Shown here in pieces: positions 9,738 to 32,000 of a stretch of 32,000 nt of DNA. The stretch covers positions 383,726 through 415,725 of the forward strand of contig JAFVFD010000005.1 of the NCBI GenBank assembly GCA_017475605.1, in the 5' to 3' direction. How positions within the stretch are numbered: the stretch's first letter is position 1; every line of letters begins with the position of its first letter. The position numbers and the translations under genes are program-made. The notes under the pieces were generated by a model. The model searched no databases, was not told where the DNA came from, and was given only the letters and a program-made list of their open reading frames with translations. The stretch is from Alphaproteobacteria bacterium (GTDB lineage: Bacteria > Pseudomonadota > Alphaproteobacteria > Rs-D84).

Positions 9738-10361
9738 TTATTTAATTTTATCTTTTGTGTGCCGTTTTAGGCATTTGCGACTGAAATAAAACTGCTGCTG
9801 GCATAATGTGCCGCGGCGTGTGCCATGACAATATGAACATTCGCCACCGCGTTGTTCGCATTCTTCGCCACATGGAACCACGTGCTGACCATGCTTGATT
9901 ACGGCATGTCCAAGAAACACCGATTTTAAAAATGTTTTTTGTGAACCGTCTTCGAATACAAGCGCGACTTGTTCAACAGGATTGGCCTTGGTCGGCTTTA
10001 TTGTGCGGTATGATTTAATGCGGTACGACATTTTTTGTATCCCGCGTTCAAATTTTGGCTTTTCCTGGCCAAAGTTATGTGGTTTGTACGCATAAACAAA
10101 TTGTTCTTGGCACGCAATTTGTGGAACATTGTTGGTTCGCGGACCCATGGGCCGCCAAGTGCAGTTGCCATTTTCGTCCGGGCCATTACAGCGGCTGCGG
10201 CATGATTCTATTACCATTCCGGGTTTAATTTGCGCATAGCCTTTCTTTTCTGTCTTTTTGATAAGGCGGCACGAACCATCGGCAAAATCAACAATCCAAC
10301 CAGTGCGCCGTTTTTTTACCGAAGAAATAGTGCGTTTTGCAGATTCTTTAAAAGATGTCAT
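9738..10361 (-). CDS. Hypothetical basic cytoplasmic protein made of two tandem Cys-rich modules
   Basis: The 207-aa product has an internal duplication visible by eye. One copy reads WIVDFADGSCRLIKK..YAQIKPGMVIESC..C..C...CQEQFVYAYK. The other reads VALVFEDGSQKTFLK..HAVIKHGQHVVPC..C..C..CH...CQQQFYFSRK. The gene has its own promoter and an AGGA RBS. Confidence 0.65.
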   Translation of the reverse strand: MTSFKESAKRTISSVKKRRTGWIVDFADGSCRLIKKTEKKGYAQIKPGMVIESCRSRCNGPDENGNCTWRPMGPRTNNVPQIACQEQFVYAYKPHNFGQEKPKFERGIQKMSYRIKSYRTIKPTKANPVEQVALVFEDGSQKTFLKSVFLGHAVIKHGQHVVPCGEECEQRGGECSYCHGTRRGTLCQQQFYFSRKCLKRHTKDKIK

Positions 10362-13634: not shown

Positions 13635-14312
13635 TTATCGCACCGGTGAAATACGAATTTCAACACGACGATTGGTAAGGCGGCCTATGTCGTCCTGGGC
13701 GGCAATGGGACGTGCCGCGCCACGTCCAACAATGAAAAGTCGTTGGGGAATAATACCATGTTGGGCAAAATAAACACCGGTGCGCATCGCCATATCGTTC
13801 GACAATGCCGCCGCCGCCCGCGAATCACGCGTTGCATCGGTATAGCCCGCAATTTCAATAAATGTCGCATCGTATTTATTAAGTAATTTAGAAATTGTTT
13901 TTAGTGTGTCTGCACCATCGGCGGAAATATCCGCAACACTCATTTCCATTATCGCACCACGAACCAAGATGATAACGACATCTGTGCCGGCGCGTTGGAC
14001 GGAAATGCCAGGCTTGCGCAACGCGTCATACAGTGCAAATTCAAGGTCGGACATATATGCCAATGCCAACGCATTATCATCGCCATATTCCAATTTTGCG
14101 GCATGTTCCGATTGTGCAACCAGTTTTCCGCCCGCCCCAAGATATACTGGCTTTTTTGCGATGCGTGTTGTTTCGGTCATATCGGTTAAACTTGCCCCAC
14201 GCAGATATGTTGGCCATGTATTGCGCGCCGGACTGTGATATGTTGCGCATCCAAATAATGTGCAACAAATTAAACCATAAAAAAGTGTTTTTATATTTTT
14301 CAATTTATTCAA
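13635..14312 (-). CDS. OmpA_C-domain lipoprotein (peptidoglycan-binding), TTG start
   Basis: The start MNKLKNIKTLFYGLICCTLFGC carries a lipobox (LFGC). The C-terminal part (IAGYTDATRD...MAMRTGVYFAQHGI...GRGAARPIA...NRRVEIRI) is an OmpA/MotB-type domain. The gene overlaps the pilin stop by 8 nt. Confidence 0.8.
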   Translation of the reverse strand: MNKLKNIKTLFYGLICCTLFGCATYHSPARNTWPTYLRGASLTDMTETTRIAKKPVYLGAGGKLVAQSEHAAKLEYGDDNALALAYMSDLEFALYDALRKPGISVQRAGTDVVIILVRGAIMEMSVADISADGADTLKTISKLLNKYDATFIEIAGYTDATRDSRAAAALSNDMAMRTGVYFAQHGIIPQRLFIVGRGAARPIAAQDDIGRLTNRRVEIRISPVR

Positions 14313-14763
14313 CTACGAATGAAACCTGGTTGGTTTTGGTTGAAAAGCAATTAGATGCACCGGTGGCTTCCTGGCCGTTTACAAGCACTGTTGTTGCCCA
14401 GGGCTGTTTTTTGATGGAAAAATATTCACATTCGCCAGATGTTAACCCAATAAGGTTGATTGTAAATGCCTTTTCATCATACGTTGGTGATATGGACCAA
14501 TCATCATTCCCAATTGGTGCGCGCGACGATGCCAGTGCGCCCGCCTTGATTAAATAATCAATTGAAACACCGGCATATGATCCGCGTGCGCCAGTCAATA
14601 TTTTTACATTTTTTACAATGCGTTCCAGTTCATGTGATGCCAGTGTGCGTATTTGGCTTTCGCGAAGTTGTCCATATAATTGAACCGCCGCAACCGCCAT
14701 AACGGCACCAATGGCCAACACACCGATTATTTCAATTAATGAACGTCCAGATTCTTGTTTCAT
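14305..14763 (-). CDS. Type IV pilin-like protein (PilA-like, 152 aa)
   Basis: It has a class III signal, MKQESG|RSLIEIIGVLAIGAVMAVAAVQLY, with Gly at -1 and Glu at +5. A C-terminal Cys pair (GECEYF...SNCF) resembles the disulfide loop of type IVa pilins. GGGGGGA lies upstream of ATG 14763, 25 nt after the dnaX stop. Confidence 0.8.
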   Translation of the reverse strand: MKQESGRSLIEIIGVLAIGAVMAVAAVQLYGQLRESQIRTLASHELERIVKNVKILTGARGSYAGVSIDYLIKAGALASSRAPIGNDDWSISPTYDEKAFTINLIGLTSGECEYFSIKKQPWATTVLVNGQEATGASNCFSTKTNQVSFVVE

Positions 14764-14788
14764 AATTTCCCCCCAGTCTTTTAACAAT

Positions 14789-16846: not shown

Positions 16847-18205
16847 TTGCGAAACAGTCGTGGAAACTTTTTATTACAGGCATTGCTTGCGCTGACACTG
16901 TTGTTCGCATTTATCCCGTTTATTGCGATAAAATTGCTGGGGCGTGAAAACGATGCGCTTATGTATGCCACGACGCGCCAAATAGATAATGCCACAACCG
17001 CGGCGCGAATATATATTCGTGAAAATGTAAATCGTTTGCCGTATGAGCATACTGTAATTTCAGGGGATGCTTTTTCAGATACACTTGAACCTTATGGTTT
17101 GCCATTGGGTTTTGTGCCTAAGACTGCGCTGGGCCAGGATATATCATTGGTAATTGATAAAAGCGCAGAATCTGTGTCCGCGTATCTTGATTTGCGTGGT
17201 GGTGATTTAAGCAGAGTAAAACGCGCGGAACTGGTGCGCCGTATCGGGTACTTTGCGAACGATGCGGGCGATGGGGGTGTACATGTTGGAATTGCGCTGG
17301 ATAATACATATTCCGATGTTGTTCGTCGCAACGAAATAAATGTTGATGCGAATGCGTTTTTAGTTGATTTAGATATGGGTGGTTTTTCATTTACTAATGC
17401 CGACAATGTGTCGCTGCGGCGTGGCGCGTTTGATGGCGCGGAAATAGGCTCGCTTACTATCAATGGTTTGGAATCTGGTCGAAAAATAAAAAACACGATA
17501 TCGGTAATGGTTGCAGATAAAACAATATTTCAAACAAATCGTGGTGAAAGTGCGTTATCCTTGACACGTGGTTCACTTATTGTGGGCAGTTTGAACGGTA
17601 AAACGGTCGCGGCATATGGGGACACTGGTAATATAACAACGAACAACGCATCGGTTTATGATTTTTCTATGACTGCCGGACGCACCGGTTTTAGTGGCCC
17701 GCCGAATTGGAATATTCGTGGTAATGTTGTTACGACTAAAATCAATTTTAGTGTAGAACGTTTGGATATTAATTCGTTCATTAACGCATCGCGTGGCCAG
17801 GATGTTTTTATCAATTCTGATGAATTAGAATACAGCAGCGCAAGTGGCATAGATACTGACATAATCTATGCATCAAATATAACATTACGCGACCAGACAT
17901 CAGACGCATTGTCGCGTGGTGGTTCGGGGGCGGTGGTGTTGGACGTACGGCCCGCCGGAACATCGTTGTTGCCCGATATGTATGTTACAACAATTGATAA
18001 TGGTGTTTTTGAAATCTTGGCACGACCATCGGACAGTGATTCAAATACCGTTGATTGTAAATCAATAATATCGTCATTAAAGGGTGTGTATAATCAGCAT
18101 TCAATGGCACAATATATAATTTGTCAGTATGTTTATTGGCAACGACTGGAAAAAAGAATAAATATAAAACAATGTTTGTTGGCGGGGAAAAGTGGCTGTA
18201 TTTAA
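16847..18205 (+). CDS. Giant pilin-like protein P1 (452 aa; class III signal with Gln at +5)
   Basis: The TTG start follows GGGGGGA. The N-terminus is MRNSRG|NFLLQALLALTLLFAFIPFIA. Other features are the LEPYGLPLGF patch, the junction motif VDLDMGGFSFTNADNV, a beta-helix-like Gly/Asn/Thr/Val-rich C-terminal half, and 4 Cys in the last 55 residues. Confidence 0.8.
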   Translation: MRNSRGNFLLQALLALTLLFAFIPFIAIKLLGRENDALMYATTRQIDNATTAARIYIRENVNRLPYEHTVISGDAFSDTLEPYGLPLGFVPKTALGQDISLVIDKSAESVSAYLDLRGGDLSRVKRAELVRRIGYFANDAGDGGVHVGIALDNTYSDVVRRNEINVDANAFLVDLDMGGFSFTNADNVSLRRGAFDGAEIGSLTINGLESGRKIKNTISVMVADKTIFQTNRGESALSLTRGSLIVGSLNGKTVAAYGDTGNITTNNASVYDFSMTAGRTGFSGPPNWNIRGNVVTTKINFSVERLDINSFINASRGQDVFINSDELEYSSASGIDTDIIYASNITLRDQTSDALSRGGSGAVVLDVRPAGTSLLPDMYVTTIDNGVFEILARPSDSDSNTVDCKSIISSLKGVYNQHSMAQYIICQYVYWQRLEKRINIKQCLLAGKSGCI

Positions 18206-19403
18206 AACAAAAATCTTTGACGGTATAAATCGCGGTGCCAGTGTATTGGAAGTGATATTGTCAATGGCCATTGTTGCCATGGCGGCACCACTGGTGTATA
18301 CGCAAATATCCGAAACCAACAGAAATATTCATGATATGGCAACCGCGCGGAATATAACAGATGTGCGTGGTGTGGTTTTGAACTTTATTCGTCTGAACCA
18401 GGACACGTGGCCGGATACGGCGCAAATTCGTTTGACGGACGAAGAATTGGAAATTATTGCCGATGGTGCGCATGCGGGATTTGTTGATAAATATACGATG
18501 CATGGTACAACAATCACAGATGTATATTTGGCATTTGATATACATGAACCAGTATTACATACCGCAAACATTGCGCATCATATTGGTGATGACGCGGCGG
18601 TTGTTGGACCGGATGGTGTGGCGCAGGGTCGTACATGGGCGGTAAGTGCGCCTGACTTTAATATTGGTGATTTGATATATCGTATATCGCGTGATGTGTT
18701 TGGCGAAGATAAAACTAAATACCTTCATCGTGGAACATCGGGCGATGACGAACTAAATGTTATGTATCGTGATTTTAATATGGGTGGAAAAACGGTATAT
18801 GATGTTGGTGGAATTGATGCAAATACAATGCGCGTGGACGACGTAACCGCAACATTTATTAAAACAGAAGATTTATCTGCGAACACGATATATTTTGCCA
18901 GTGGCGCAAACATGATGGGTGGTAATGTAACAATGGGTTCGTTGCGTGTAACCGGCGATATTACAGGTTTTAGAAATATTTATGCAGATAATTTAAACGG
19001 TGCGGGTTATACAACATCTGGTCGTGTGATTGCGGATCGTGCGGTGGTTACAAATTCGGTAAATGTGGCGCGTGATTTAGTATTGAAATCTGATACCGCG
19101 CGGACGATAAGTGGGTTTACCGGAATCAAGGCAAGTTCGGTTTACACCGCATATTTAACGACAGACGAAATTATGTTTTACGAAGATTTTGGGTTAACGG
19201 TATCTGGTGAACTTATGATGTCGTCAAATCCGCCGATTAAATTTGGCGCATGGAGTTTTCCATCAACCACACCGCCAACATTTACACGATTGACACTGGC
19301 GCGCGCGCCTATTCCGGCCGCACCTAAAAAATCTGAATTCGGTGCAATTTTAACAAGTGGTTGGCAATCATATGTACCAGAATCTGTTGTGGGGGGATTA
19401 TGA
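18192..19403 (+). CDS. Giant pilin-like protein P2 (403 aa)
   Basis: The GTG start follows GGGGA and overlaps P1 by 14 nt. The N-terminus is MAVFKTKIFDGINRG|ASVLEVILSMAIVAMAAP (Glu at +5). The junction motif is YLHRGTSGDDELNVMYRDFNMGGKTVYDVGGI. The C-terminal half looks repetitive and beta-helix-like, and the protein contains no Cys. Confidence 0.8.
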   Translation: MAVFKTKIFDGINRGASVLEVILSMAIVAMAAPLVYTQISETNRNIHDMATARNITDVRGVVLNFIRLNQDTWPDTAQIRLTDEELEIIADGAHAGFVDKYTMHGTTITDVYLAFDIHEPVLHTANIAHHIGDDAAVVGPDGVAQGRTWAVSAPDFNIGDLIYRISRDVFGEDKTKYLHRGTSGDDELNVMYRDFNMGGKTVYDVGGIDANTMRVDDVTATFIKTEDLSANTIYFASGANMMGGNVTMGSLRVTGDITGFRNIYADNLNGAGYTTSGRVIADRAVVTNSVNVARDLVLKSDTARTISGFTGIKASSVYTAYLTTDEIMFYEDFGLTVSGELMMSSNPPIKFGAWSFPSTTPPTFTRLTLARAPIPAAPKKSEFGAILTSGWQSYVPESVVGGL

Positions 19404-20716
19404 TTAACAAAACACGCATCTTTTCAAACAGGTTGTCGCAACGCGGGGGAATGTTGGTTGAATTGCTTATGAGTGTGGCAATCGTATCTGTGGTGTTGCC
19501 GTTCCTTTTTCGGTATCAGCAAGATTCTATTATTCGTGCCGAAAATATTGCTGTTGCGCGGCAAATGCAGGATGTTCAAACCGTACTTGAACGATACATA
19601 GTAATAAATCGTGATCAATTATTGGTTGTTGCGGGTAAATCAATTATTCGTGTTGATGTTAAAGATTTGATTGAATACGGTTTACCAGAAACGATTGTGG
19701 AAAAATATGGCGATAAATACCAGTTGCGAATTTTAAAATCGTCTGATGCCACCGGCCAGGCAACACTTCAGGGTGTTGTTGTATTAAGTGATGATTCTAT
19801 TTCCCCAATGCGCACACGCGAAATAGTTTCAACCGGCGGTGCCGATATGGGCTTTGTCGAAGGTACGCACGCGTACGGAACGTTTGGCGCATGGCATGCG
19901 GATACAATTGAATTGGGGGTAAATGCGACAAATGGCATTGTTGGAACAACGGCGGTAAATCGTGATAATGCGCTGTATTTTTGGCGGTTGCCGTCTGACG
20001 ATTCAGCGGACGCAACGATGTTAAGTGCGCTTAACCTGGGGGGGCACGACATCACAAATGTTTCACGATTTGATGTTTATTCGGCGGGTTTTGATGAAAT
20101 ATTAGAATCGATAAATATTGCGGCAAACCGCGTTGTGTTTTCTAATCGTACAACGATAGACAGTGCGTTTGAAACAAAAACTGCGACATGTTCTGGTACT
20201 TTATCGTCTGATGCCAAGGGGCTAGAGATTACAGGTGCGTTAACCCTGACGGATATGGGCAAGTTTTCTAATTTCAATACATCAAATCTGTGGGCGACTA
20301 ATTTGACATTGTCGGGTATTTCAATTGCCGACACGACCAAGGTTACGGTTTTGGATGTTAACCAAAGTCTTGATATGACCGGTGGTCGTATTACTTCGTT
20401 ATTTACGACGGTAAGTTTTGCGGGGTCCATCACACCGCGTTTGGTTGTTCGTGATAAAATTGCGGATTCGGTGGACAAGAACTTTTATTGGGACCTTAAA
20501 AACCGCGTTGCGAATTTTTCAGATGCTTCGTTGGCGGAACTTAGTCGTATGGCACCATTGGTTGCCGCCCGCGAAGGCGACAATAACACCGTTTCAACCC
20601 AGGTGTTCGGTGCCGTATCCGCCAACAGAAATGCCACCGCCGCAGATTTTATGAATGCTATAAACGAAATTCAAAATCGGGTGCGTGCGAAATATCGCTT
20701 GTTGAATTTGGAATAA
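19400..20716 (+). CDS. Giant pilin-like protein P3 (438 aa)
   Basis: An ATGA overlap joins it to the P2 stop, with GGGGGGA upstream. The N-terminus is MINKTRIFSNRLSQRG|GMLVELLMSVAIVSVVLP (Glu at +5). It has the LIEYGLPETI patch and the junction motif YFWRLPSDDSADATMLSALNLGGHDITNV. The C-terminal half differs from P1 and P2. Confidence 0.8.
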   Translation: MINKTRIFSNRLSQRGGMLVELLMSVAIVSVVLPFLFRYQQDSIIRAENIAVARQMQDVQTVLERYIVINRDQLLVVAGKSIIRVDVKDLIEYGLPETIVEKYGDKYQLRILKSSDATGQATLQGVVVLSDDSISPMRTREIVSTGGADMGFVEGTHAYGTFGAWHADTIELGVNATNGIVGTTAVNRDNALYFWRLPSDDSADATMLSALNLGGHDITNVSRFDVYSAGFDEILESINIAANRVVFSNRTTIDSAFETKTATCSGTLSSDAKGLEITGALTLTDMGKFSNFNTSNLWATNLTLSGISIADTTKVTVLDVNQSLDMTGGRITSLFTTVSFAGSITPRLVVRDKIADSVDKNFYWDLKNRVANFSDASLAELSRMAPLVAAREGDNNTVSTQVFGAVSANRNATAADFMNAINEIQNRVRAKYRLLNLE

Positions 20717-20736: not shown

Positions 20737-21246
20737 ATGAAAATAAAATGTGATTTTTGCAAGACAGAATATTCAATTGAACGTGCGCCATCTGCGCCGG
20801 TGAAATGCGCGGTGTGTGGGCATGTGTGGAATGTGGTTGTGCCGTCGCGTCGTGGGGCATGGATGTTGTTTATCGCATCTGTGTGCGCTTTGTTATCGGC
20901 AATAGTATTTGTAACCGCCGTTGTTGTAAAGTCTAAGATAGAGGCCGCCAACCGTGCACCCATTGTTGCGGAATTGTCGGAAATCAAGGTTGTAACCGAC
21001 GATGACGGCATCCCGCACTTTGCCGTTAGTGGTGCGATTATAAATCAGTCAACGGAAATATACGGTGTGCCTGATTTGGTGGTGGTGTCGCGCGATGCGA
21101 CGGGCCATGAAATTGCCCGGCAAAAGTTTATGCCGTCCGCCACATTAGTAGAAGGGGGCGCATCGGTCGGGTTTAATCATGTGTTAAGTACACCAACAGA
21201 TGGTGTGAAAAAAATAACTGTGGAATTACAAATGGGGGATGAATAA
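20737..21246 (+). CDS. Zinc-ribbon (MJ0042-type) membrane protein with a DUF3426-like C-terminal domain
   Basis: The N-terminus MKIKCDFCKTEYSIERAPSAPVKCAVCGHVW is a CxxC...CxxC ribbon. One TM helix (WMLFIASVCALLSAIVFVTAVVV) is followed by a beta-rich domain (FAVSGAIINQSTEIYGVPDLVVVSRDATGHEIARQKF..). Confidence 0.75.
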   Translation: MKIKCDFCKTEYSIERAPSAPVKCAVCGHVWNVVVPSRRGAWMLFIASVCALLSAIVFVTAVVVKSKIEAANRAPIVAELSEIKVVTDDDGIPHFAVSGAIINQSTEIYGVPDLVVVSRDATGHEIARQKFMPSATLVEGGASVGFNHVLSTPTDGVKKITVELQMGDE

Positions 21247-21716
21247 TGAAAAGATTTCTTGTCGCATTTGGAATGTTGTTATGTGTGTTTTCGGCAAATG
21301 CCGCGGAACCAACACCGCCACCGGCACGCCGGATTAGTGTTTTTTCCACAAGTACAGATTGGCAGGCGATAACGGGTTTATTGCTTAATGAATATCGTGG
21401 AATATTTAAACCAGATGCCAAGGTTGTTGGACCCAAGGGGGTGGTATTATATTACCTGGATGGGTTCCCATGCTATGGTCTGGGGGATGGTGTGCGTGTT
21501 TGGTTGGGGGCAAATAACAAACATTCTGGCGAATTGCGAATTGCGTGTGTATATGCGCCGGAAACGATAAACTTTTCATGGCGAAATGCGGCCCGCGATG
21601 CGGATGATGCAACGGGAACAGGTTTGTTGACATGCCCTGTTTCGGCGGACGGTCGTGATTTGACGATTGATTTGGCAAAATGCACATTTGGTAAAGATTG
21701 GTCTGAATATAAATAG
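21246..21716 (+). CDS. Small secreted protein (156 aa, 4 Cys), unknown function
   Basis: A TAATG overlap joins it to the upstream stop. The signal peptide is MKRFLVAFGMLLCVFSANA|AEP. I recognise no family. Confidence 0.65.
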   Translation: MKRFLVAFGMLLCVFSANAAEPTPPPARRISVFSTSTDWQAITGLLLNEYRGIFKPDAKVVGPKGVVLYYLDGFPCYGLGDGVRVWLGANNKHSGELRIACVYAPETINFSWRNAARDADDATGTGLLTCPVSADGRDLTIDLAKCTFGKDWSEYK

Positions 21717-22711: not shown

Positions 22712-22739
22712 TTGTCTAAATCTGAAATTATGGTATAAT
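22712..22739 (+). promoter_or_regulatory. Candidate promoter of the Cys-rich cluster (extended -10)
   Basis: TTGTCT (22712-22717), a 16-nt spacer ending in TG, then TATAAT (22734-22739), giving TGGTATAAT. GGAG (22754-22757) and ATG 22766 follow. Confidence 0.5.
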
Positions 22740-22765
22740 AAAATAACAATAATGGAGTGAGACAA

Positions 22766-25700
22766 ATGCATTTCTTCAAAAAAACAATTGGGTTAATGGC
22801 TGTTTTGTGCGTGATTCCGGGGGCGTTTGCTGCGACTGCGCGTCCATCTGTGATTACGACGGCGGGGTCGCGTATGCCGACAATGGTGGTTAAAACATCG
22901 ACCGCCGCGACATCGTCTGGCACAACAACATCGTCTGCATTGTTGGCGGATGCCGAATGTATTGATGCGTACACCGAATGTATCAAAGGCGCAGATGCTT
23001 GTGGCGAAAATTTTGAAGAATGCACAACGAATGTCTTGTTCCACGGTAAAATGCCAGGTTGTTTAAGCACATTGGCACAATGTTCATCGGCCGGTGTAAA
23101 CAGTTTGTTTGGCACATCAAACATTGCCGCTTTGTCCAATGTTGCGACCAAAAACACTTATGGCGAGGTTACAGAATACACATATCCAACCGCAGGCAGT
23201 GTTTTAGGTCAAATGATAACTGCGGCGGCCATTTCGAACCAGTATGACACATCAACCTGTGTTCGTCGTGTAACATCTTGCCTTAAAAAAGATACCGTTT
23301 GTGGAAATGATTTCGAACTTTGCACCACGAACAAAGAGTTCCGTAAACAGCGCGTGTTGTGTGATTCCACATTGGCGCGTTGCCAGGCCGAAGGCGTGAT
23401 TGAATTGTTGGGTTCGTCAAATCGTACCGCGGTACCAACCGCAACAAGTCGTATTGGCGAAATGATTAGCGAAGGTGCGGCACTGGCGGCTGTAAATGCG
23501 GTTTCCACCTGTTACAAGGTTATTGACCAGTGTTTCTTGGGGGCATGTGCGGAAAATCCGTATAAGTGCTTTGAAAACAGCAGCACATCATTGGCATCTA
23601 TCGTAGATGCGATTAACAGTGGTTCTGAAATCACGACTGATATGATTGATACTGTTATTAATGGTTCATCAATTCATGGCTATATCAAAAATGCTTGTTT
23701 AGACACCGTTGGTTCGAACAAATATTGCTATGCGACATTCCTGGGTAATGGCCAAATGCCAACAAATGCCCAGTTGCGCGACGAAGATAACCAGGAAGAA
23801 ATCTTTGACGAAGCATATGCGTCCCGTATGAATGCCGGTATGAAGGCTAAAATTGCGGACTTGATTGATAAATTTGACACCCGCGCAAAGAGCAAATGTA
23901 CCGAAACAATCAAATCGTGTGCGATGCGTGTTTGTGGTGGTGGCATTGGTTCCGCATGCTATGCCGCGGTATTTGGTGGCGCAGATAAAAGCATCAATGG
24001 TTCCAACACATACGAAGAAATCAAAACAGGTTGTGCGCCAATCGTAAATACTGATACATATTGTAAATATGCGGCGGCGAATCCAAATTCGACCGGTACA
24101 TATTCATATACATATATAAATCGCGATGCGTTTGATGTATTGTTCCCTGAATACAGCGGCGGAACCGAAATTGATTCTATCGGTGTGGTGGCAAGCCTTA
24201 ATTCCGCGTTGGCAACAAATTACAGCGATGCGGCTATTGCCCAGTTAAAGAAACAATGTCAGTCGTTGGCGACAAGTTGTGTTAAAACAATGTGCGGAAC
24301 TGATTATACCAGTTGTTATCGTAACCGTACCGATGTCGCGTCCAGTTTGACTAATTCCGGCAACAGCGCATTTGATGCATCTATGAACAAGGTTGGCGGT
24401 GTGCTTGATTACACAATCGTATTGGGGTTGTGCCTGGATACAGTTAAAAACGCATCTGTTTGTGAAGAACACCTTGCTATCGAAGGTAACAAAATCAAAA
24501 TGGCGGGCGCGGGGACATCATCGTGGGGTGGTGCATCATCTGTCCGCGAAGGCTGGATTGATGCCGGTGCCGCAACAAAAGTAACGGGCGAAGTTCGCCA
24601 GGTTGCACTTACCGATGCATACGGCAACGAATTGTGCAGAACACAAGACGGTGAAGAATGCATATGTAATACAGTAAGCGAAAGTGGCAAGGTTTGCGAT
24701 ATCAAGGAAATGATAGACTATACCACATTCGTTCAGACCCAGGCGGCAAATTCATTGTTCAAAGATTTAATCTATGACATTGAAAAAGAAGCCCAGGCGA
24801 AATACAACGCGAAATTGACCGCTGAACAAAATATGTGCTTGGCGGCGAACGCGGGTGGTATTGTTGGCAATCGTGATAACGGTTCTACATTTATGTGGGT
24901 TAAATTAAAGGGCAATCGTATTCCAAAAGATTATACGACAAATGGCCTTAAACAGACCGCATTTGCGACCAGTAATGAATTGTATGGTTCGTTCTGTCGT
25001 GTACGCGTAACATTACAGTCTGACGATAAAAAGATTCAGGAAGCAATTTCCGGCAAATCGTGGAATACGGCATATTATGCGGTTGGCGATTCGTTCACAT
25101 GCGGTTCTTGGATACCGGAATCTGCTTTGGATGATTTGGCAAATGCTGCGGCGGACGATGCAACATCAAACATGCGTGCCGACCAGGAACGTGTCCGCAC
25201 ATGGACAACGATTTTGGGCGCATTGGGTGGCGGTGCCGGCGGATTGGCATTGGGCGAAAACATCCGTACAGGTAAAACATTGGGTGGTTTGACGGGCCTG
25301 TCGCCAGATGTCCAGAAAAACAAAGCAAAAAGCAGCAAGACCAGTTGTATCAGGGCGGCGAATGAAGTCGCATACCCAACTGCAACAGCGCAGAATGTGT
25401 ATGACTATTCTGGAACTGTGGCAAGTGATGCACGTGATTTGAAGGCCGCTTTGGACAGTGAATTGACATTGTTGAACGGTCAACGTACGGTGTTGTTAAC
25501 TGCTATTAACACAACGTGCGCAGATGGCGATAAAACTTGCCTTAGCAATAAAGAGAACGCGATTGCAAAAGCGAAGTCCGATGTACAAACAACCGTTGCA
25601 AGTATTAAAGCGGGTTGCGATAAAGCAACTGAAGACGATGTTGTAGCAAGCAAGGACAAGACACGCGGTTGGATTTCGGCGTTAAGCACGATTACATTGG

Positions 25701-25882
25701 GAACCGCCGGTGCGTTGTTGGTAAATCGCGCAACCCAGGATATCCAAGATTCCGAATTGTCGGCTGCACAAAAGGCGGCATACGAAGATTGGATGAACAA
25801 GGTTGGTCGCCACATCACATGCTATATCGGTGGGGACGAAGCCGGTAATTATGGCGATGTGATTACAACGGCACTGGAATAA
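22766..25882 (+). CDS. Large secreted Cys-rich protein (1038 aa from ATG 22766), unknown family
   Basis: The signal peptide is MHFFKKTIGLMAVLCVIPGAFA|ATARPS. By my count the mature protein has about 42 Cys. It contains two exact-spacing six-Cys modules, further C-x6-C-x4-C-x6/7-C units, and two C-terminal Trp + Gly-zipper hydrophobic segments. A strong terminator follows. Confidence 0.85.
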   Translation: MHFFKKTIGLMAVLCVIPGAFAATARPSVITTAGSRMPTMVVKTSTAATSSGTTTSSALLADAECIDAYTECIKGADACGENFEECTTNVLFHGKMPGCLSTLAQCSSAGVNSLFGTSNIAALSNVATKNTYGEVTEYTYPTAGSVLGQMITAAAISNQYDTSTCVRRVTSCLKKDTVCGNDFELCTTNKEFRKQRVLCDSTLARCQAEGVIELLGSSNRTAVPTATSRIGEMISEGAALAAVNAVSTCYKVIDQCFLGACAENPYKCFENSSTSLASIVDAINSGSEITTDMIDTVINGSSIHGYIKNACLDTVGSNKYCYATFLGNGQMPTNAQLRDEDNQEEIFDEAYASRMNAGMKAKIADLIDKFDTRAKSKCTETIKSCAMRVCGGGIGSACYAAVFGGADKSINGSNTYEEIKTGCAPIVNTDTYCKYAAANPNSTGTYSYTYINRDAFDVLFPEYSGGTEIDSIGVVASLNSALATNYSDAAIAQLKKQCQSLATSCVKTMCGTDYTSCYRNRTDVASSLTNSGNSAFDASMNKVGGVLDYTIVLGLCLDTVKNASVCEEHLAIEGNKIKMAGAGTSSWGGASSVREGWIDAGAATKVTGEVRQVALTDAYGNELCRTQDGEECICNTVSESGKVCDIKEMIDYTTFVQTQAANSLFKDLIYDIEKEAQAKYNAKLTAEQNMCLAANAGGIVGNRDNGSTFMWVKLKGNRIPKDYTTNGLKQTAFATSNELYGSFCRVRVTLQSDDKKIQEAISGKSWNTAYYAVGDSFTCGSWIPESALDDLANAAADDATSNMRADQERVRTWTTILGALGGGAGGLALGENIRTGKTLGGLTGLSPDVQKNKAKSSKTSCIRAANEVAYPTATAQNVYDYSGTVASDARDLKAALDSELTLLNGQRTVLLTAINTTCADGDKTCLSNKENAIAKAKSDVQTTVASIKAGCDKATEDDVVASKDKTRGWISALSTITLGTAGALLVNRATQDIQDSELSAAQKAAYEDWMNKVGRHITCYIGGDEAGNYGDVITTALE
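22958..23083 (+). repeat. Six-Cys module, copy 1 (C-x6-C-x6-C-x6-C-x12-C-x6-C)
   Basis: The module reads ECIDAYTECIKGADACGENFEECTTNVLFHGKMPGCLSTLAQC. Confidence 0.8.
23258..23383 (+). repeat. Six-Cys module, copy 2 (identical Cys spacing, exactly 100 aa downstream of copy 1)
   Basis: The module reads TCVRRVTSCLKKDTVCGNDFELCTTNKEFRKQRVLCDSTLARC. It shares CG..FE.CTTN and C.STLA.C with copy 1. Confidence 0.8.
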
Positions 25883-25898
25883 TCACAGTCAAACAAAT

Positions 25899-25924
25899 TA
25901 ACCGCCCATTCGGGCGGTTTTTTG
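25899..25924 (+). terminator. Rho-independent terminator
   Basis: The sequence reads ACCGCCC-attc-GGGCGGT-TTTTT, 16 nt after the stop. Confidence 0.8.
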
Positions 25925-26121
25925 TGGGCGCTAGTTTTCTTGAATCTTGTTCCAGAAAACAACAACCTGCCCCACGGGGCAGGTATCGCGCATCAGACAA
26001 TCAAGTCATAAATCTTAAATCAGGAATCACAAATGTAGTCGCGATTAAATCAGCAATATGGTTAAACTCTGTTCTTGCGGGGGTGGGTTTTTTGTGATAA
26101 AATTAAAAGCACAGAGAGAAT

Positions 26122-28053
26122 ATGAAATATTTTGCCAGATTTTTGTTGGCTGTGTTATCTGTCGTGCCATTTGGCGCGAATTGTGCCAATATTCCGACAA
26201 CGCGCGGGAATAATTTAACCGCATATAACGGCGCGTCGGGAACCACAAATAATAATAATTGGAACGCGTTAATGAATGTGCGTTCGGGTGCGGACAGTGC
26301 CGATATGCCGGTGGCGGACTTTGGTAATTGTAATGCAATTGTTTTGCGCTGTGCGCAACCAAAATGCGCGAACGGTGGTTGCGTGGACGTGGATGTAACA
26401 TCGACAATTGTTGCGGGTTGTGTGCGTTCTAATGATGCGTGTGCAAAATATGGCGATGATTTGGTTGCGTATATTTCCGCGCAATTGGTGGCCCAGAGTA
26501 CCGCTAAATCAAACGCGGCGCAATCGGCCGCGGCAAATGCCGCCGCCGCACAAAGTGCACAGCAAATGGCCGCTATGCAACAACAGATGCAACAGATGCA
26601 ATCGCAAATGGCGGCACAAAATGCCGAAACCGTTGCCCAATTACAAGATGCGTTAGAGGAACAAAAACAATTAACCGCCCAGGCTATTGCCGATGCAACC
26701 GCGGCACGCACAACACAGGCTGCTGTCAATGTGGCTGCGGCGACTGCTGATACCGAATCAAATACGACACAAACGACGGCCCAGACCGCCGCGGCCGGTG
26801 CGTTGACAACGGCGCAACAATTGGCGGCACAAAGTGGTGTTTCAGCGGATATTTTGGCGCGCGAACAGATTTCTGGGCAAATTATGTCGGCAATCGAAAA
26901 CGCACAAACCCAGTTAAATAAACTTAAAGAGACAATGACCAATGTTTTTGATTACGCGGGTTGTGATTCGCGTGGCGATAATTGTACCGGCCCAAAGCGC
27001 GTTAAAACATTTAAACAAAAGGCTATGGATTTCTTTGAACCATACGACAATGTTTTGGACGATGTTTACGATGCCCTTATCCTTGCTCAATCGGTCGGCG
27101 TTGATATTACCGATATCTATATGATGTTAAACGATTCGTGTAATGTATGGGGCAAATATATGTGTAACCAGAATCAAGATTTGCGCTATACGACACAAAA
27201 TTGTCAAAAAGATGCATCGGGGGTATATCGTTCGGTTTCTGGTAAATTCGTGTTAGGTGATGCAAATTGTACAGTTGGAAAAATTATACCGGTGTCTGAT
27301 GGTGGGTGTCAGCCGTTGGGCCTTATTAACAATGACGAAGAAGTACGTTATAACTGGTTAAACCCGGATACCGGGGACGAAACTAATATCAAGGTTGGCT
27401 GTATGTCGGATATGTTGGACACTTCCGCATTGTTCCGCAATCGTAAAAAAGGTGCCAGTATTGATATCGAAACACTTAAACGCATAATCGAACAAGATGC
27501 ACCAAGTGTTTATGGCGCGCGCTTTGGTGGCCTGGGTACAACAACCGCGCCAGATCCAGACGGAATTAAGTATTGCAAGGTAAATCCGGAAACTTTTATC
27601 GAATTGGAAAAAATAGTGTCATTAAAAACATTGCCACAAAATGTATGTGTGACGGACGCATTTTTGAAATCAGAAGCAGAAAATAAAGAAGGTTTGGGGG
27701 GAAACTCTAGTGTAGATAATAATAAAAAAACAGCGTGCTTACAAACACAGGGTGCGGTGTATTCAGATACATTGAATGTGTGCTACTGTTTGAATCAAGA
27801 AATGCATGATAAAAACTTTTTTACCTGTGATCCTGCCGCAGGCGCAGAGCAAAAAAGAAAGGACGAATTAAAGGCAAAGTGCATGTATTGGGCATCGGTA
27901 AAAAGTAGCAGGGTTTTGACAAGAAATTATAAATCATACGATGAATGTATTTGTGAGGAAAGCGACGAAACAACAACATATTATACCAATGGTAACATGT
28001 GCGAATGTGCTGATGGGGAAAAGTTTAATACGGTAAATCTTAAATGCGAATAA
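26122..28053 (+). CDS. Secreted Cys-rich protein with a central Ala/Gln-rich region (643 aa), unknown family
   Basis: The signal peptide is MKYFARFLLAVLSVVPFGA. An N-terminal NCNAIVLRCAQPKCANGGC unit has the same C-x6-C-x4-C style as the 1038-aa protein. An Ala/Gln/Thr low-complexity or coiled-coil region of about 150 aa follows. The C-terminal half carries about 20 Cys, including CYC, CIC and CEC pairs. Confidence 0.85.
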   Translation: MKYFARFLLAVLSVVPFGANCANIPTTRGNNLTAYNGASGTTNNNNWNALMNVRSGADSADMPVADFGNCNAIVLRCAQPKCANGGCVDVDVTSTIVAGCVRSNDACAKYGDDLVAYISAQLVAQSTAKSNAAQSAAANAAAAQSAQQMAAMQQQMQQMQSQMAAQNAETVAQLQDALEEQKQLTAQAIADATAARTTQAAVNVAAATADTESNTTQTTAQTAAAGALTTAQQLAAQSGVSADILAREQISGQIMSAIENAQTQLNKLKETMTNVFDYAGCDSRGDNCTGPKRVKTFKQKAMDFFEPYDNVLDDVYDALILAQSVGVDITDIYMMLNDSCNVWGKYMCNQNQDLRYTTQNCQKDASGVYRSVSGKFVLGDANCTVGKIIPVSDGGCQPLGLINNDEEVRYNWLNPDTGDETNIKVGCMSDMLDTSALFRNRKKGASIDIETLKRIIEQDAPSVYGARFGGLGTTTAPDPDGIKYCKVNPETFIELEKIVSLKTLPQNVCVTDAFLKSEAENKEGLGGNSSVDNNKKTACLQTQGAVYSDTLNVCYCLNQEMHDKNFFTCDPAAGAEQKRKDELKAKCMYWASVKSSRVLTRNYKSYDECICEESDETTTYYTNGNMCECADGEKFNTVNLKCE

Positions 28054-28841
28054 AAAACGAAATCTTTAACGGTAAAATGTTATGCGCAATCGCCGCAATT
28101 TGTGCCGCGCTGTCGCCGGTATTTGCCGCAACGGGTAATGGTTGCGACAAGGACTCTAATGACCGCATTAACCCGGAAATCGCGTTGTGTTCCACACATG
28201 TTTATAATATCGGGCAAACGAAAAACCCGGCATCTGAAAATGACAAGCAATTAATGCGTGATGTGGTTGCGTTGAAAACAACCGTTATGACACAACAGAT
28301 GTATAAACAATACGAATATCTGGATGCGACATTAAAACGTTTTAAAACGCAGTTGGAAAAGGCTGTTTTAACCACTAAATTGGCGGCCGCCGGTGCGGAT
28401 ACATCCGCCGCGGGTTCTTCGTCCTATTCGGGCATATCGACGGGCAATTCAACATATCGCAGTATGGACAAAAACATTCGTCTTGCCGGTGCGCAAAATT
28501 GTATGACGATGACATCGTATCAAAATGCTTATTCGTGTTTATCGTCAAATGTTCAGTTGGTGTTAAATGCAGTCAACGGTGGAAATAGTGTTGGTGAAGC
28601 AAGAAAACAATTAGAAGCAGATTTGAAGGTTGCTGAAACTTGGACTATTATTTATAACAAAGACGGAAAATATACTACATCTGCTAACACAATTTCAGGT
28701 TTAGCAAACTGTAATTCATTAAGAAGCACACGTGATTCTGTGATTGGTTGCGCACAAGAGTTGAATGTTGCAATTGCGCGTTCTTTGGATGATCGCCAGC
28801 AGCGTCAGAATACGTATAACAGAAATAACCAACAAAATTAA
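28044..28841 (+). CDS. Secreted protein (265 aa, 6 Cys in the mature part), unknown family
   Basis: It overlaps the upstream gene by 10 nt, or starts at ATG 28077. The signal peptide is ..MLCAIAAICAALSPVFA|ATG. It has a helical Gln/Lys/Tyr-rich segment, a Gln/Asn-rich tail, and a strong terminator. Confidence 0.75.
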   Translation: MRIKNEIFNGKMLCAIAAICAALSPVFAATGNGCDKDSNDRINPEIALCSTHVYNIGQTKNPASENDKQLMRDVVALKTTVMTQQMYKQYEYLDATLKRFKTQLEKAVLTTKLAAAGADTSAAGSSSYSGISTGNSTYRSMDKNIRLAGAQNCMTMTSYQNAYSCLSSNVQLVLNAVNGGNSVGEARKQLEADLKVAETWTIIYNKDGKYTTSANTISGLANCNSLRSTRDSVIGCAQELNVAIARSLDDRQQRQNTYNRNNQQN

Positions 28842-28844
28842 AAT

Positions 28845-28870
28845 CACCGCCCATTCGGGCGGTTTTTTTA
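28845..28870 (+). terminator. Rho-independent terminator (same hairpin as at 25899)
   Basis: The sequence reads ACCGCCC-attc-GGGCGGT-TTTTTT. Its 23-nt core is identical to 25901-25923. Confidence 0.8.
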
Positions 28871-28937
28871 TTGGTTTCGTCTGATGGTGGATTGTTGCGC
28901 TTTGCTCGCAATGACAAATAAAATGTATTTTGGATAC

Positions 28938-28966
28938 TAAAAAACGCCCCGTGGGGCGTTTTTTTG
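28938..28966. terminator. Bidirectional rho-independent terminator (serves the minus-strand 419-aa gene)
   Basis: AAAAAA-CGCCC-cgtg-GGGCG-TTTTTTT lies 9 nt beyond the stop at 28975. Confidence 0.7.
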
Positions 28967-28974
28967 ATTTTTGC

Positions 28975-30234
28975 TTATGGGCATAACTCCAATTGCTTTA
29001 AGACGTTCTGGACATCGTTATTTATCGATACCGTTATTTGCCGTTGCAACCCGTCTGTGTATGTATAATAAAACTTCTGATCCGCAAATTCAGGTGCCGC
29101 GGCATAGGCCTGTTGGAATGGTGCCAACATTGCCGCAAACCATTGACGACCACGACACAGACACCCGTTGCGAACGTCCGCCGCAACCGCCGCCGTTGCC
29201 GTATTTGGATATTTGGTATCCAATTCTTCGTCGGTCATCATAAGGCAACGCGAACCAAAACCATAGAAGTTTGCATCGTCCGCCATGAATTTGTAAATAA
29301 GCCCTTCGGATGCGCCGGCATTCTTTAATGAATATACCAGGCCGTCCGTACAGCACGCATTGGCCGAACGCATTAACATTTTATAGCGGTCCAACAATGG
29401 TGCCGCAACTGGTTCGGTCGCCTTGATTGATGCATTACATTTTGCCGCCGATATAAACGCGTTCAATGTATCAATGCGAATTGTCGGGCTGCGTGGAGAT
29501 ACGGTTTCGCGAACGATTGGTTTGCGCCGCCATATTTCACATTCTGTTTCACTGTCAAATGGGCAACCATCAGATGGACCAAATGCGACACTTACAATTT
29601 CGGTCATATCCTGGGCCGTATATTTCGGTGATGGCGCATATTCAGAATCGCAACCATCGGACCACAAATCGCATTGTGGCTTGTTTGGTTGTAATAATTC
29701 ATCAATGCGCGCACGTGTTGCGGCCGCATCAGCCATATTTTGATTATAGAGTTCAACCGCCGCATCATATTCGTATGATTCAGATGGGGCATCAACTTCG
29801 CGTAAATAGATTTCAGGCGATGGTTCCAGGAACCAGTCGGAAAAATCCTTGCGTTTATAATGCGCAATCGAATCGTCCCAAATTGGCACACCGTCGCGCC
29901 AGTCAACCGTCTTGTCGTGGGTATAACGCACCTTTGTGCCGGATGGTACCCCGTCCCATAATGCCGGGCGGGTGTCTTCTGGTACAGGCTTGATTGACAA
30001 GGTCTTGACCGAACGCATCGGTATTTGTGTTGCGTATATGTATTCGGTTGGCTGTTCATACTGAACAATCGGGGTTGGCGCAATATAGCCCACAGGTGCA
30101 GGCGCAGCAACCGCGGTGTCCGCATACATTATTTCATTAAAATCACATTCCGCCCCCGTACAATCAGACGCCAGGGCAGGTGTCATCCCGCATATTACAA
30201 GCAGAGATGAAAAAACATATTTTTTCATTTTCAT
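28975..30234 (-). CDS. Secreted Cys-rich protein (419 aa from ATG 30234), unknown family
   Basis: The signal peptide is MKMKKYVFSSLLVICGMTPALA|SDC. By my count the mature protein has about 13 Cys (CTGAEC, C-x6-C, ACC, CLC). It has a Pro/Tyr/Asp/Trp-rich N-terminal half. The ORF-track start at 30324 adds 30 unsupported codons. Confidence 0.8.
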   Translation of the reverse strand: MKMKKYVFSSLLVICGMTPALASDCTGAECDFNEIMYADTAVAAPAPVGYIAPTPIVQYEQPTEYIYATQIPMRSVKTLSIKPVPEDTRPALWDGVPSGTKVRYTHDKTVDWRDGVPIWDDSIAHYKRKDFSDWFLEPSPEIYLREVDAPSESYEYDAAVELYNQNMADAAATRARIDELLQPNKPQCDLWSDGCDSEYAPSPKYTAQDMTEIVSVAFGPSDGCPFDSETECEIWRRKPIVRETVSPRSPTIRIDTLNAFISAAKCNASIKATEPVAAPLLDRYKMLMRSANACCTDGLVYSLKNAGASEGLIYKFMADDANFYGFGSRCLMMTDEELDTKYPNTATAAVAADVRNGCLCRGRQWFAAMLAPFQQAYAAAPEFADQKFYYTYTDGLQRQITVSINNDVQNVLKQLELCP

Positions 30235-30241
30235 ACCCAAA

Positions 30242-30250
30242 ATTATATCA
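30242..30250 (-). promoter_or_regulatory. Extended -10 element TGATATAAT, 7 nt upstream of ATG 30234
   Basis: The minus strand reads TGATATAAT-tttgggt-ATG. The 9-mer and its spacing are identical to those at 11120-11128. Confidence 0.35.
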
Positions 30251-30365
30251 TAAAACGGTGGGATAAAAAACAGATTTTTTGTTGTTATATAAAGTTTATT
30301 TTGATTATAATCACAACATAGCATTTTTTATCAGTTCTTTTTTCATAAAACCATAAGGGGTAAAA

Positions 30366-31202
30366 ATGAAAAAACTTATTACACTTACATCAATATTTGC
30401 GCTTTGTTCTGTGCCTGCAATCGCAGATGAAGAAGGCGCAACAAAATCGGCAACCGCATTTCCACATGGACTGGAAATCGGGCTGGGGTTATCTGCAACA
30501 ACAGGGGTAAACGGCTTTGTTGGCTATGTGAACAAAGATTTTAATTCTTTCTGGTGGAAACGCATTGGTGTGCGCGCAGATTTCGCAACAACTAAACCAT
30601 TAAAGTCGACAATCAATTCATTTGTTGATTCCGCCATGGGCGATGATGGAATAGAGGTTGGCGATTATATGACAATAACAAACGGGGGTATCGAATCAAA
30701 CCATTTTGCTGCGCTGGTTGATTTTTACCCGTTCGGCGATACTTGGTTCTTGGGTGGGTTGCGTGTATCGACCGGGTATGTGTTCGGTGATGCCAAGGTT
30801 AGTGCCTTAATCACAAGCAAGGCGGATACAGGCGCAATTGCCGGCAGCGAATTCGAATTAAATGGTACAGAGTATAAATATGAAGGCGGCGACATTAAGG
30901 CCAAGGCCAAGGCGGACTGGAAATTATCTGGCCCATATCTGGGGGCTGGTTTTGATTTGGGGATTTATCGCGGCTTCAAATTATTTATGGATGCAGGTGT
31001 GGTATTTACAACAAAATCTGCGGAATTGTCGCTTGATGTGCCTGAAACTGGGCTTAAATATAAAAATGGCGGTTCCTGGACAGATGTGGATATAACCAAA
31101 TTGGCAAATGATATAAATGCGACAGTTCAAGACGCACAAAGCGATTTAGACGATTATAAGTTCTTTCCGATGATAAAGGTTGGGTTTATGTATCGTTTCT
31201 AG
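30366..31202 (+). CDS. Outer-membrane beta-barrel protein (278 aa)
   Basis: AAGGGG lies 5 nt upstream of the ATG. The signal peptide is MKKLITLTSIFALCSVPAIA|DEE. Alternating hydrophobic beta-strand patterns with Gly and aromatic girdles run through the protein. The C-terminus ..KVGFMYRF ends in a terminal Phe, the OMP sorting signature. TATAAT lies at 30306-30311. Confidence 0.8.
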   Translation: MKKLITLTSIFALCSVPAIADEEGATKSATAFPHGLEIGLGLSATTGVNGFVGYVNKDFNSFWWKRIGVRADFATTKPLKSTINSFVDSAMGDDGIEVGDYMTITNGGIESNHFAALVDFYPFGDTWFLGGLRVSTGYVFGDAKVSALITSKADTGAIAGSEFELNGTEYKYEGGDIKAKAKADWKLSGPYLGAGFDLGIYRGFKLFMDAGVVFTTKSAELSLDVPETGLKYKNGGSWTDVDITKLANDINATVQDAQSDLDDYKFFPMIKVGFMYRF

Positions 31203-31315: not shown

Positions 31316-31350
31316 ATAAAAATCGCGGAAATCTGCGATTTTTTAATTTT
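31316..31350 (+). terminator. Probable terminator or insulator upstream of the rRNA promoter
   Basis: The sequence reads AAAAATAAAA-AATCGC-ggaaatct-GCGATT-TTTTAATTTTTTT. Confidence 0.4.
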
Positions 31351-31751: not shown

Positions 31752-32000
31752 AAACTTGAGAGTTTGATCCTGGCTCAGAACGAACGCTGGCGGCAGGTCT
31801 TAGGCATGCAAGTCGAACGGACGAAGCGGAAGCTTGCTTCCGCCTAGTTAGTGGCGCACGAGTGAGTAACGCGTGGGAAACTGCCCACCACTGGGGAATA
31901 ACGTTTGGAAACGAACGCTAATACCGCATACGCCGGAAACGGGAAAGATTTATCGGTGGTGGATGTGCCCGCGTTGGATTAGCTTGTTGGTGGGGTAATG
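31752..32000 (+). rRNA. rrs: 16S rRNA, 5' portion (continues beyond the window)
   Basis: The sequence contains AGAGTTTGATCCTGGCTCAGAACGAACGCTGGCGGCAGG...CATGCAAGTCGAACGG...GTGAGTAACGCGTGGGAA...GCTAATACCGCATACGCC..GAAAGATTTATCG. These are universal 27F-region and alphaproteobacterial-type signatures. Confidence 0.97.

Follow-up and report, generated by a model that had tools for sequence, protein, structure and literature searches.

How do gut bacteria of the order Rs-D84 (Enterousia) make contact with other cells? They occur widely in the guts of humans, rodents, birds and ruminants. The question is raised here by five consecutive genes, lettered A to E, at positions 22712-31202 of a 32,000-nucleotide (nt) stretch of chromosomal DNA from the uncultured alphaproteobacterium Candidatus Enterousia (the window, meaning this whole stretch). 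About 8 kilobases (kb), ~1% of the genome, are devoted here to conserved exported proteins that no database names. Further families mentioned below are designated F, S156 and U451-U452-U403.

Enterousia genomes are smaller than 1 megabase and specify a fermentative metabolism without tricarboxylic acid cycle or respiratory chain and without pathways to make amino acids, nucleotides or lipids; the organism is probably an obligate symbiont or parasite (PMC12306168). "Hypothetical membrane-bound proteins" were proposed to mediate its contacts, and pili were not reported in the published Rs-D84 analysis (PMC12306168).

In the reading favoured here, to which we assign a probability of roughly 0.45, A, B-C and D are core, clade-restricted envelope or surface proteins, disulfide-stabilised, of a host- or partner-dependent bacterium, and they are separately transcribed and loosely co-located, not a fixed module. 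We infer the disulfide formation, localisation and function of A-D from sequence. The genes are as follows.

22766-25882, + strand: gene A, open reading frame (ORF) of 1038 amino acids (aa) from ATG; predicted exported, cysteine (Cys)-rich, mostly alpha-helical protein; present at every related locus fetched
26122-28053, + strand: gene B, ORF of 643 aa; predicted exported
28044-28841, + strand: gene C, ORF of 265 aa; predicted exported, 6 conserved Cys; 10-nt overlap with B
28975-30234, - strand: gene D, ORF of 419 aa; predicted exported
30366-31202, + strand: gene E, ORF of 278 aa; probable small outer-membrane beta-barrel, not Cys-rich

The coordinates and lengths of the five genes in an initial annotation of the window were the same in the ORF listing. 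Its placement of the cluster between rluD and the ribosomal RNA (rRNA) operon was also borne out: rluD lies upstream of A (Pfam PseudoU_synth_2, 7.8e-30), and the 16S rRNA starts at 31752, downstream of E. The public protein MBR2286591.1, titled "hypothetical protein IJ866_04010" and coming from an alphaproteobacterial metagenome-assembled genome (MAG), matches the product of A at 100% identity, and B, C and E are hypothetical proteins adjoining it in the public record. Public gene calls for D start at an upstream ATG (445-449 aa, P0121 and P0122; window 28975-30324, - strand). In D orthologues such as that of locus L018 the first residues are MKMKKYVF; this favours the 419-aa form, which has the signal peptide at its N-terminus. 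GC content and skew of the window are unremarkable; as base composition is not anomalous, the region is not a recent island, and recent horizontal acquisition was ruled out.

Searches of Pfam and NCBIfam with whole A-D gave nothing credible (no Pfam family at E<=0.1), and the same held for Pfam searches with domain pieces and all 32 A orthologues, where glycine-zipper matches stayed sub-threshold. Sequence and profile searches of the PDB with the A-D families found nothing. Foldseek searches of the PDB with AlphaFold2 (AF2) models of A and D returned generic helical bundles only (best E 0.39 for A, 0.30 for D). DUF1444, TFIIA, DUSP, DUF7729, Huntingtin and TBP, encountered as noise with single sequences, pieces, profiles and all orthologues, gave no credible match. 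The profile of A, run against 1.84 billion representative proteins, matched 262 clusters, i.e. one clade, and B and D have hundreds of close unnamed relatives without a Pfam domain. The absence of a recognisable family and the restriction to one lineage, both proposed in the initial annotation, therefore stand. No description of these proteins was found in literature on Enterousia, Rs-D84 and CX6C/periplasm. A, B-C and D are new protein families of a type, the Cys-rich envelope proteins exported by host-dependent bacteria, that is already known.

The five proteins A to E contain 43, 27, 8, 14 and 1 Cys in total. In the mature parts of A-D, for which about 42, 27, 6 and 13 had been given earlier, the recount was 42, 26-27, 6 and 13. 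Cys makes up 3.0-4.2% of A-D vs 1.1% of the other 22 ORFs of the window, and the C-x6-C-type motif strings first quoted from A and B are all present. In mature A, C-x6-C occurs 14 times vs 1.3 expected from shuffles (P<2e-4), a roughly tenfold excess; in B the excess is marginal (3 vs 0.8, P=0.046), and in C and D the shuffle test showed no enrichment. By eye and hydropathy scan only, the N-termini of A-D are Sec/signal peptidase I-like, with a positive n-region, a hydrophobic core and an AxA-like site; neither a twin-arginine motif nor a canonical lipobox was seen in them by these means.

Median orthologue identity is 58% for A, 51% for B, 48% for C and 62% for D, vs 73% for RluD. Cys that are ~100% conserved number 36 in A, 16 in B, 6 in C and 10-11 in D. 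The mature Cys count is even in 18/18 B orthologues, although it ranges from 18 to 30; it is even for the N-domain plus C-tail of A in 96% of orthologues, for C in 86%, and for the neighbouring exported proteins S156 and U452 in 100% and 98%. An even Cys count is a criterion for disulfide-bonded exported proteins. Retention of Cys while other residues diverge was found here, and so was, except in D, an even-Cys bias in the mature exported proteins. Cys are gained and lost in pairs, as disulfide bonding predicts, and the even counts in A, B and C argue for intramolecular pairs. Disulfide bonding, as initially annotated, is thus probably the best reading of the pattern, given the conserved Cys, the even counts and the C-x6-C excess in A.

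The architecture of A comprises the following segments.

22958-23383, + strand: modules 1 and 2 (aa 65-106, 165-206), C-x6-C-x6-C-x6-C-x12-C-x6-C
23510-24463, + strand: modules 3-5 (aa 249-321, 378-433, 498-566), C-x6-C-x4-C-x6/7-C followed by a distal Cys pair
25202-25291, + strand: glycine (Gly)-rich, glycine-zipper-like hydrophobic segment (aa 813-842), from hydropathy, with Pfam glycine-zipper matches sub-threshold
25292-25660, + strand: hypervariable insert (aa 843-965), 11% mean pairwise identity, 21-292 aa
25667-25879, + strand: conserved C-terminal tail with Cys1019, preceded by a second hydrophobic helix (aa 968-987)

The five modules hold six Cys each and start at C65, C165, C249, C378 and C498. 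All 18 Cys of modules 3-5 are 100% conserved, and modules 1 and 2 share clear homology with one another as well as with one module of family F, which occurs in related genomes. Matches of A to Gly-zipper and Rick_17kDa_Anti profiles were sub-threshold (E 0.006-0.02) in 2-3/32 orthologues, with none in the window's own A. The insert is flanked by two hydrophobic, Gly-rich segments, its Cys count is even in 80% of orthologues, and A outside it is 61-71% identical across the clade. In A and B together, the hypervariable regions (11-12% identity, 7-292 aa) lie within scaffolds that are 53-71% identical, and in both proteins they retain even Cys counts. A conserved scaffold with a hypervariable insert is typical of surface-exposed proteins, and the inserts hint at surface exposure of A and B. 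In the AF2 model, A is predicted to be mostly helical, with residues 100-380 at a predicted local distance difference test score (pLDDT) of 70-87.

The two largest proteins, A and B, had been taken for paralogues in the initial annotation. No such relation was detected by BLASTP (best E 0.35) or by profile-profile comparison (hhalign probability 1%), nor did hidden Markov models (HMMs) of the A modules match B. Instead, these HMMs match family F (E 3e-5 to 7e-5).

Family F is a fifth clade-specific, Cys-rich exported family (700-850 aa, 30-39 Cys), which shares one C-x6-C-x6-C-x6-C module with A. Members were located at L008 13404-15680, L074 4705-7128, L035 12567-15113 (-) and L060 1945-4074, and in L008 the gene is directly downstream of A. 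No credible Pfam match was obtained for the family, one match being sub-threshold. C..GYY..C-type motifs, which call to mind eukaryote-like Cys-rich repeats, recur in two further exported Cys-rich proteins, at L047 16547-18523 (-) (658 aa, 54 Cys) and L060 674-1825 (383 aa, 25 Cys), neither of which had a Pfam match at E<=0.01.

From N- to C-terminus, B has a 6-Cys module, a helical spacer rich in alanine and glutamine (Ala/Gln; ~aa 113-265), a conserved domain with Cys (266-510) and an extension that is hypervariable and Cys-paired (aa 511-643). B and C are adjacent in 21/21 loci with the pair and are fused as a single ORF in six related genomes (L001, L038, L032, L005, L007, L012); judged by these arrangements, they are two halves of one protein. 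A profile match between B and C (97.7%) was rejected as homology and regarded as an artefact, because fused B-C ORFs had entered both alignments; the fused ORFs themselves are real and informative. The C-terminal domain of D (aa 223-419) is the opposite of the variable regions of A and B, with fixed length and 79% identity across the clade, and D terminates in an invariant Cys-Pro (penultimate Cys).

E has a signal peptide and the C-terminus GFMYRF, in which the G-F-x-Y-R-F end is invariant, and lacks conserved Cys. Its resemblance to CarO-type barrels is only weak: it shares with them a signal peptide, its size and an aromatic residue at the C-terminus, and its C-terminal 160 aa weakly match NCBIfam OMP_CarO (E 1.8e-7). 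This match scores 30.8 bits, far under the cut-off of 300, and E had no match to Pfam or PDB profiles. E is probably a small outer-membrane beta-barrel. It had been regarded as an outer-membrane protein dedicated to the cluster. In 9 loci, seven of which were read individually, D directly precedes the rRNA operon with no E in between, and in five loci (L020, L047, L052, L060, L066) E-type proteins occur as two tandem paralogues downstream of D, ~54% and ~40% identical to the window's E. E is therefore optional and only a frequent neighbour.

Co-conservation was profiled by scanning one genome per GTDB species. A relative is encoded by 188 stretches, and 80 loci were kept; the fetched loci span ~23 kb each. 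Most of the kept loci stem from MAGs bearing the title of Candidatus Enterousia, of uncultured Alphaproteobacteria or of uncultured Rickettsiales, and their sources are human, mouse, chicken, rabbit and ruminant guts. The 49 informative species-level loci, those reaching far enough downstream of A, are distributed as follows.

A-B-C-D-E together: 12/49 informative loci
A-B-C-D, no E: 7/49 informative loci
A-D(-E) without B-C: 12/49 informative loci
A-B-C only: 2/49 informative loci
A alone: 16/49 informative loci

With A alone more frequent than all five genes together, the block is not conserved as a set. In another genome (L081) the B-C pair adjoins rpmH, far from A. The stable linkage of A is upstream, with rluD and three pilin-like genes: the order U452-U403-U451-Zn-ribbon-S156-rluD-A is retained with nearly fixed spacing in ~67/80 loci. 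At the most divergent A orthologues (48-53% identity) this linkage is gone, and A stands beside helicase and cell-wall genes. Between A and B-C, two loci carry a gene for a 585-aa protein (L005 13147-14904 (-); L033 13223-14983 (-)). Leucine-rich repeats of the BspA type were recognised in the L005 copy (Pfam LRR_5, E 1.4e-6).

The following sites between the genes bear on transcription.

22712-22739, + strand: promoter-like site for A, TTGTCT, 16 nt, TATAAT, with TG upstream (extended -10); a consensus match only
25900-25919, + strand: terminator-like hairpin after A, containing the 18-nt hairpin ACCGCCCATTCGGGCGGT, same as after C
28846-28863, + strand: terminator-like hairpin after B-C, 18-nt ACCGCCCATTCGGGCGGT, stem-loop same as after A
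28939-28964, no strand assigned: palindromic terminator-like hairpin serving D, downstream of this - strand gene
31318-31343, + strand: terminator-like hairpin after E

The extended -10 promoter-like site was found as annotated; a GGAG is located 9 nt ahead of the start codon (ATG) of A. A terminator for each unit, two of them sharing one hairpin, had also been claimed. Hairpins follow A, C, D and E, and those of A and C are identical; since B overlaps C and is predicted to be co-transcribed with it, it lacks a separate terminator. The promoter-like and terminator-like sites between the genes point to four separate transcription units, A, B-C, D and E. Co-transcription of the whole block was not found, with hairpins after A, C, D and E, D on the opposite strand and only B and C overlapping. 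The five-gene cluster with its own promoter is accordingly replaced by four predicted units whose genes are only partly co-conserved.

From these data, the following mechanism is proposed. A, B, C and D would be exported via Sec, cleaved by signal peptidase I and folded outside the cytoplasm into mainly alpha-helical modules. Short-range intramolecular disulfides would staple the helices, C-x6-C setting two Cys on one helix face, and this would yield scaffolds that are rigid, resist proteases and suit conditions in the gut. In A, the two hydrophobic Gly-rich segments near the C-terminus, flanking the hypervariable insert, may serve as membrane anchors. B-C would combine a Cys module with a long Ala/Gln-rich helical stalk and globular domains, and D would add a highly conserved C-terminal domain and an unpaired Cys possibly bonding to a partner. 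E would be a small outer-membrane barrel and merely a frequent neighbour. The likeliest role of A-D would be that of structural or adhesive surface or envelope components for contact with a partner or host.

Precedents exist for helices stapled in the proposed way. The Helicobacter Hcp proteins (Sel1-like repeats) are secreted alpha-helical repeats, each stapled by a short-range disulfide at fixed Cys spacing, and A also has repeated helical Cys modules. It differs from them in its six-Cys modules and its much greater size, in that no Sel1 or tetratricopeptide repeat-like Pfam match was found in A or its 32 orthologues, and in that no Hcp structure was among the Foldseek matches of the A model. 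In the twin CX3C and CX9C hairpins of the mitochondrial intermembrane space (small Tims, CHCH proteins), Cys pairs at fixed spacing on one helix face lock helix pairs by disulfides in a compartment of extracytoplasmic type, and the C-x6-C of A (i, i+7) would act alike. Spacing and organism differ, however, there is no homology, and here many tandem modules occur in proteins of 600-1000 aa.

Several observations weigh against the favoured reading. D is the exception to the even bias, its Cys count being usually odd (11). The respiratory chain is the usual electron sink for DsbB, and the habitat is the anoxic gut, where many anaerobes form few disulfides. As the clade has no respiratory chain (PMC12306168), dozens of disulfides per protein would require oxidative folding independent of respiratory quinones if the disulfide reading is true; the oxidation route in a non-respiring anaerobe would then be a separate question. 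A DsbA query and a CxxC motif scan of all fetched loci gave nothing, the ~23 kb loci covering this neighbourhood only. The AF2 models are modest: overall pLDDT is 63 and the predicted template modelling score 0.34 for A, and D reaches a pLDDT of 49, with confidence only for the helical C-terminal domain (aa 250-419). The insert of A between its hydrophobic segments has even Cys counts, which makes a simple in-out-in inner-membrane topology of the C-terminus doubtful, as the supposed loop would also have paired Cys. For adhesins, strong conservation and a single gene copy would be less usual.

Three other explanations were considered and are less likely than the favoured reading. The initial annotation had drawn an analogy to the chlamydial Cys-rich outer-membrane complex. 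Its members OmcB, OmcA and MOMP are Sec-exported Cys-rich envelope proteins of a reduced-genome, host-dependent Gram-negative bacterium, and their disulfides are presumed to provide mechanical stability. By this analogy, A, B-C, D and perhaps E would be joined by intermolecular disulfides into a rigid periplasmic or outer-membrane lattice, which we consider quite improbable. A-D likewise are exported, are unusually rich in conserved Cys and belong to a reduced-genome, partner-dependent bacterium, and the odd Cys count of D leaves one thiol that could bond to a partner, for which the invariant penultimate Cys is available; odd Cys counts in 15/81 A orthologues fit a lattice as well. However, the even parity in A, B and C suits intramolecular rather than intermolecular bonds, A is predicted to be helical and not beta-rich, and E has no conserved Cys for cross-linking. 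A-D have no Pfam-detectable homology to OmcB or OmcA and resemble no known protein in sequence or fold, OmcB-type ones included, and the genes are not co-conserved as a set. Enterousia moreover retains MreB, RodA and MrdA (PMC12306168), and genes for penicillin-binding protein, MraY, FtsW and MurG were seen in related loci; with peptidoglycan and rod-shape genes present in the clade, nothing obvious calls for a substitute wall.

Of similarly low probability is a partnership of A with a type IV filament or with an apparatus resembling type II secretion, either as tip adhesin or as secreted substrate, A being encoded with the three upstream pilin-like paralogues as PilY1/PilC is with minor pilins. 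Like PilY1/PilC, A is large (~1000 aa), exported and encoded downstream of several pilin-like genes in conserved order, that of the ~67/80 loci mentioned above. The three upstream proteins are paralogous and have prepilin-like N-termini and one weak GspI-like match, a small canonical-looking pilin is encoded at 14305-14787, and type II secretion substrates are typically Sec-exported and disulfide-bonded. Against this stand the three intervening unrelated genes, housekeeping rluD among them, the separate promoter-like site and terminator of A, and the loss of linkage in the divergent lineages, where A lies beside helicase and cell-wall genes. Reduced genomes generally keep gene order, so that the synteny is weak evidence. 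Pfam detected no PilY1/PilC domain in A and 32 orthologues, and neither a secretion ATPase nor a secretin was seen in the fetched loci.

Binding of metals (Zn or Fe-S) by the Cys arrays instead of disulfide formation, which would make these extracytoplasmic metal-storage, redox or electron-transfer proteins, would suit the regular Cys spacing, an anaerobe lacking a respiratory chain and any obvious oxidant for a DsbB-type pathway, and also the even counts that four-Cys sites would likewise yield, but is very improbable, since cofactor-loaded proteins are normally exported by twin-arginine translocation and the Sec-type signal peptides without twin-arginine argue against pre-loaded clusters, each module has six Cys rather than four, the Cys number rises and falls by pairs over a wide range (18-30 in B), and no Fe-S or Zn-finger family was detected in Pfam or NCBIfam.

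The favoured reading of A, B-C and D as disulfide-stabilised envelope proteins can be extended to a wider proposal, which we hold to be unlikely: that A, B-C, D and F would form an Rs-D84 envelope or attachment apparatus built from clade-restricted, disulfide-stapled helical-repeat families with new folds and hypervariable surface inserts, mediating the obligate dependence on a partner or host. The A-D proteins and the adjacent pilin-like genes are the obvious first candidates for a contact interface. Of practical value are the defined families A, B-C, D and F, and that the genes are not one operon is relevant to experiment design.

The three paralogues upstream of rluD lie at 16847-18205 (+), 18192-19403 (+) and 19400-20716 (+) of the window, are ~400-450 aa long and were related by hhalign (E 3e-8 to 2e-99). 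In their prepilin-like N-termini a hydrophobic helix comes after a G, and position +5 is E or Q; their C-terminal parts look beta-rich by eye only. They matched no Pfam family, and one of them has a weak GspI/XpsI-like match. The pilin-like protein of 14305-14787 (-) is ~150 aa long; its N-terminus (MKQESG|RSLIEIIGVLAI) looks like that of a canonical type IV pilin, and a Cys pair is present at the C-terminal end. It is encoded beside dnaX, also in L074, and a near-identical ORF was found in L029. Conserved between the pilin-like genes and rluD are S156 (21246-21716 +), a small exported protein with four invariant Cys, and, adjoining it, a membrane protein with an N-terminal MJ0042-type zinc ribbon (20737-21246 +). 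Elsewhere in the window, at 9738-10361 (-), a basic 207-aa protein is encoded that has 11 Cys, lacks a signal peptide, matches no Pfam family and may be a cytoplasmic Zn-binding protein.

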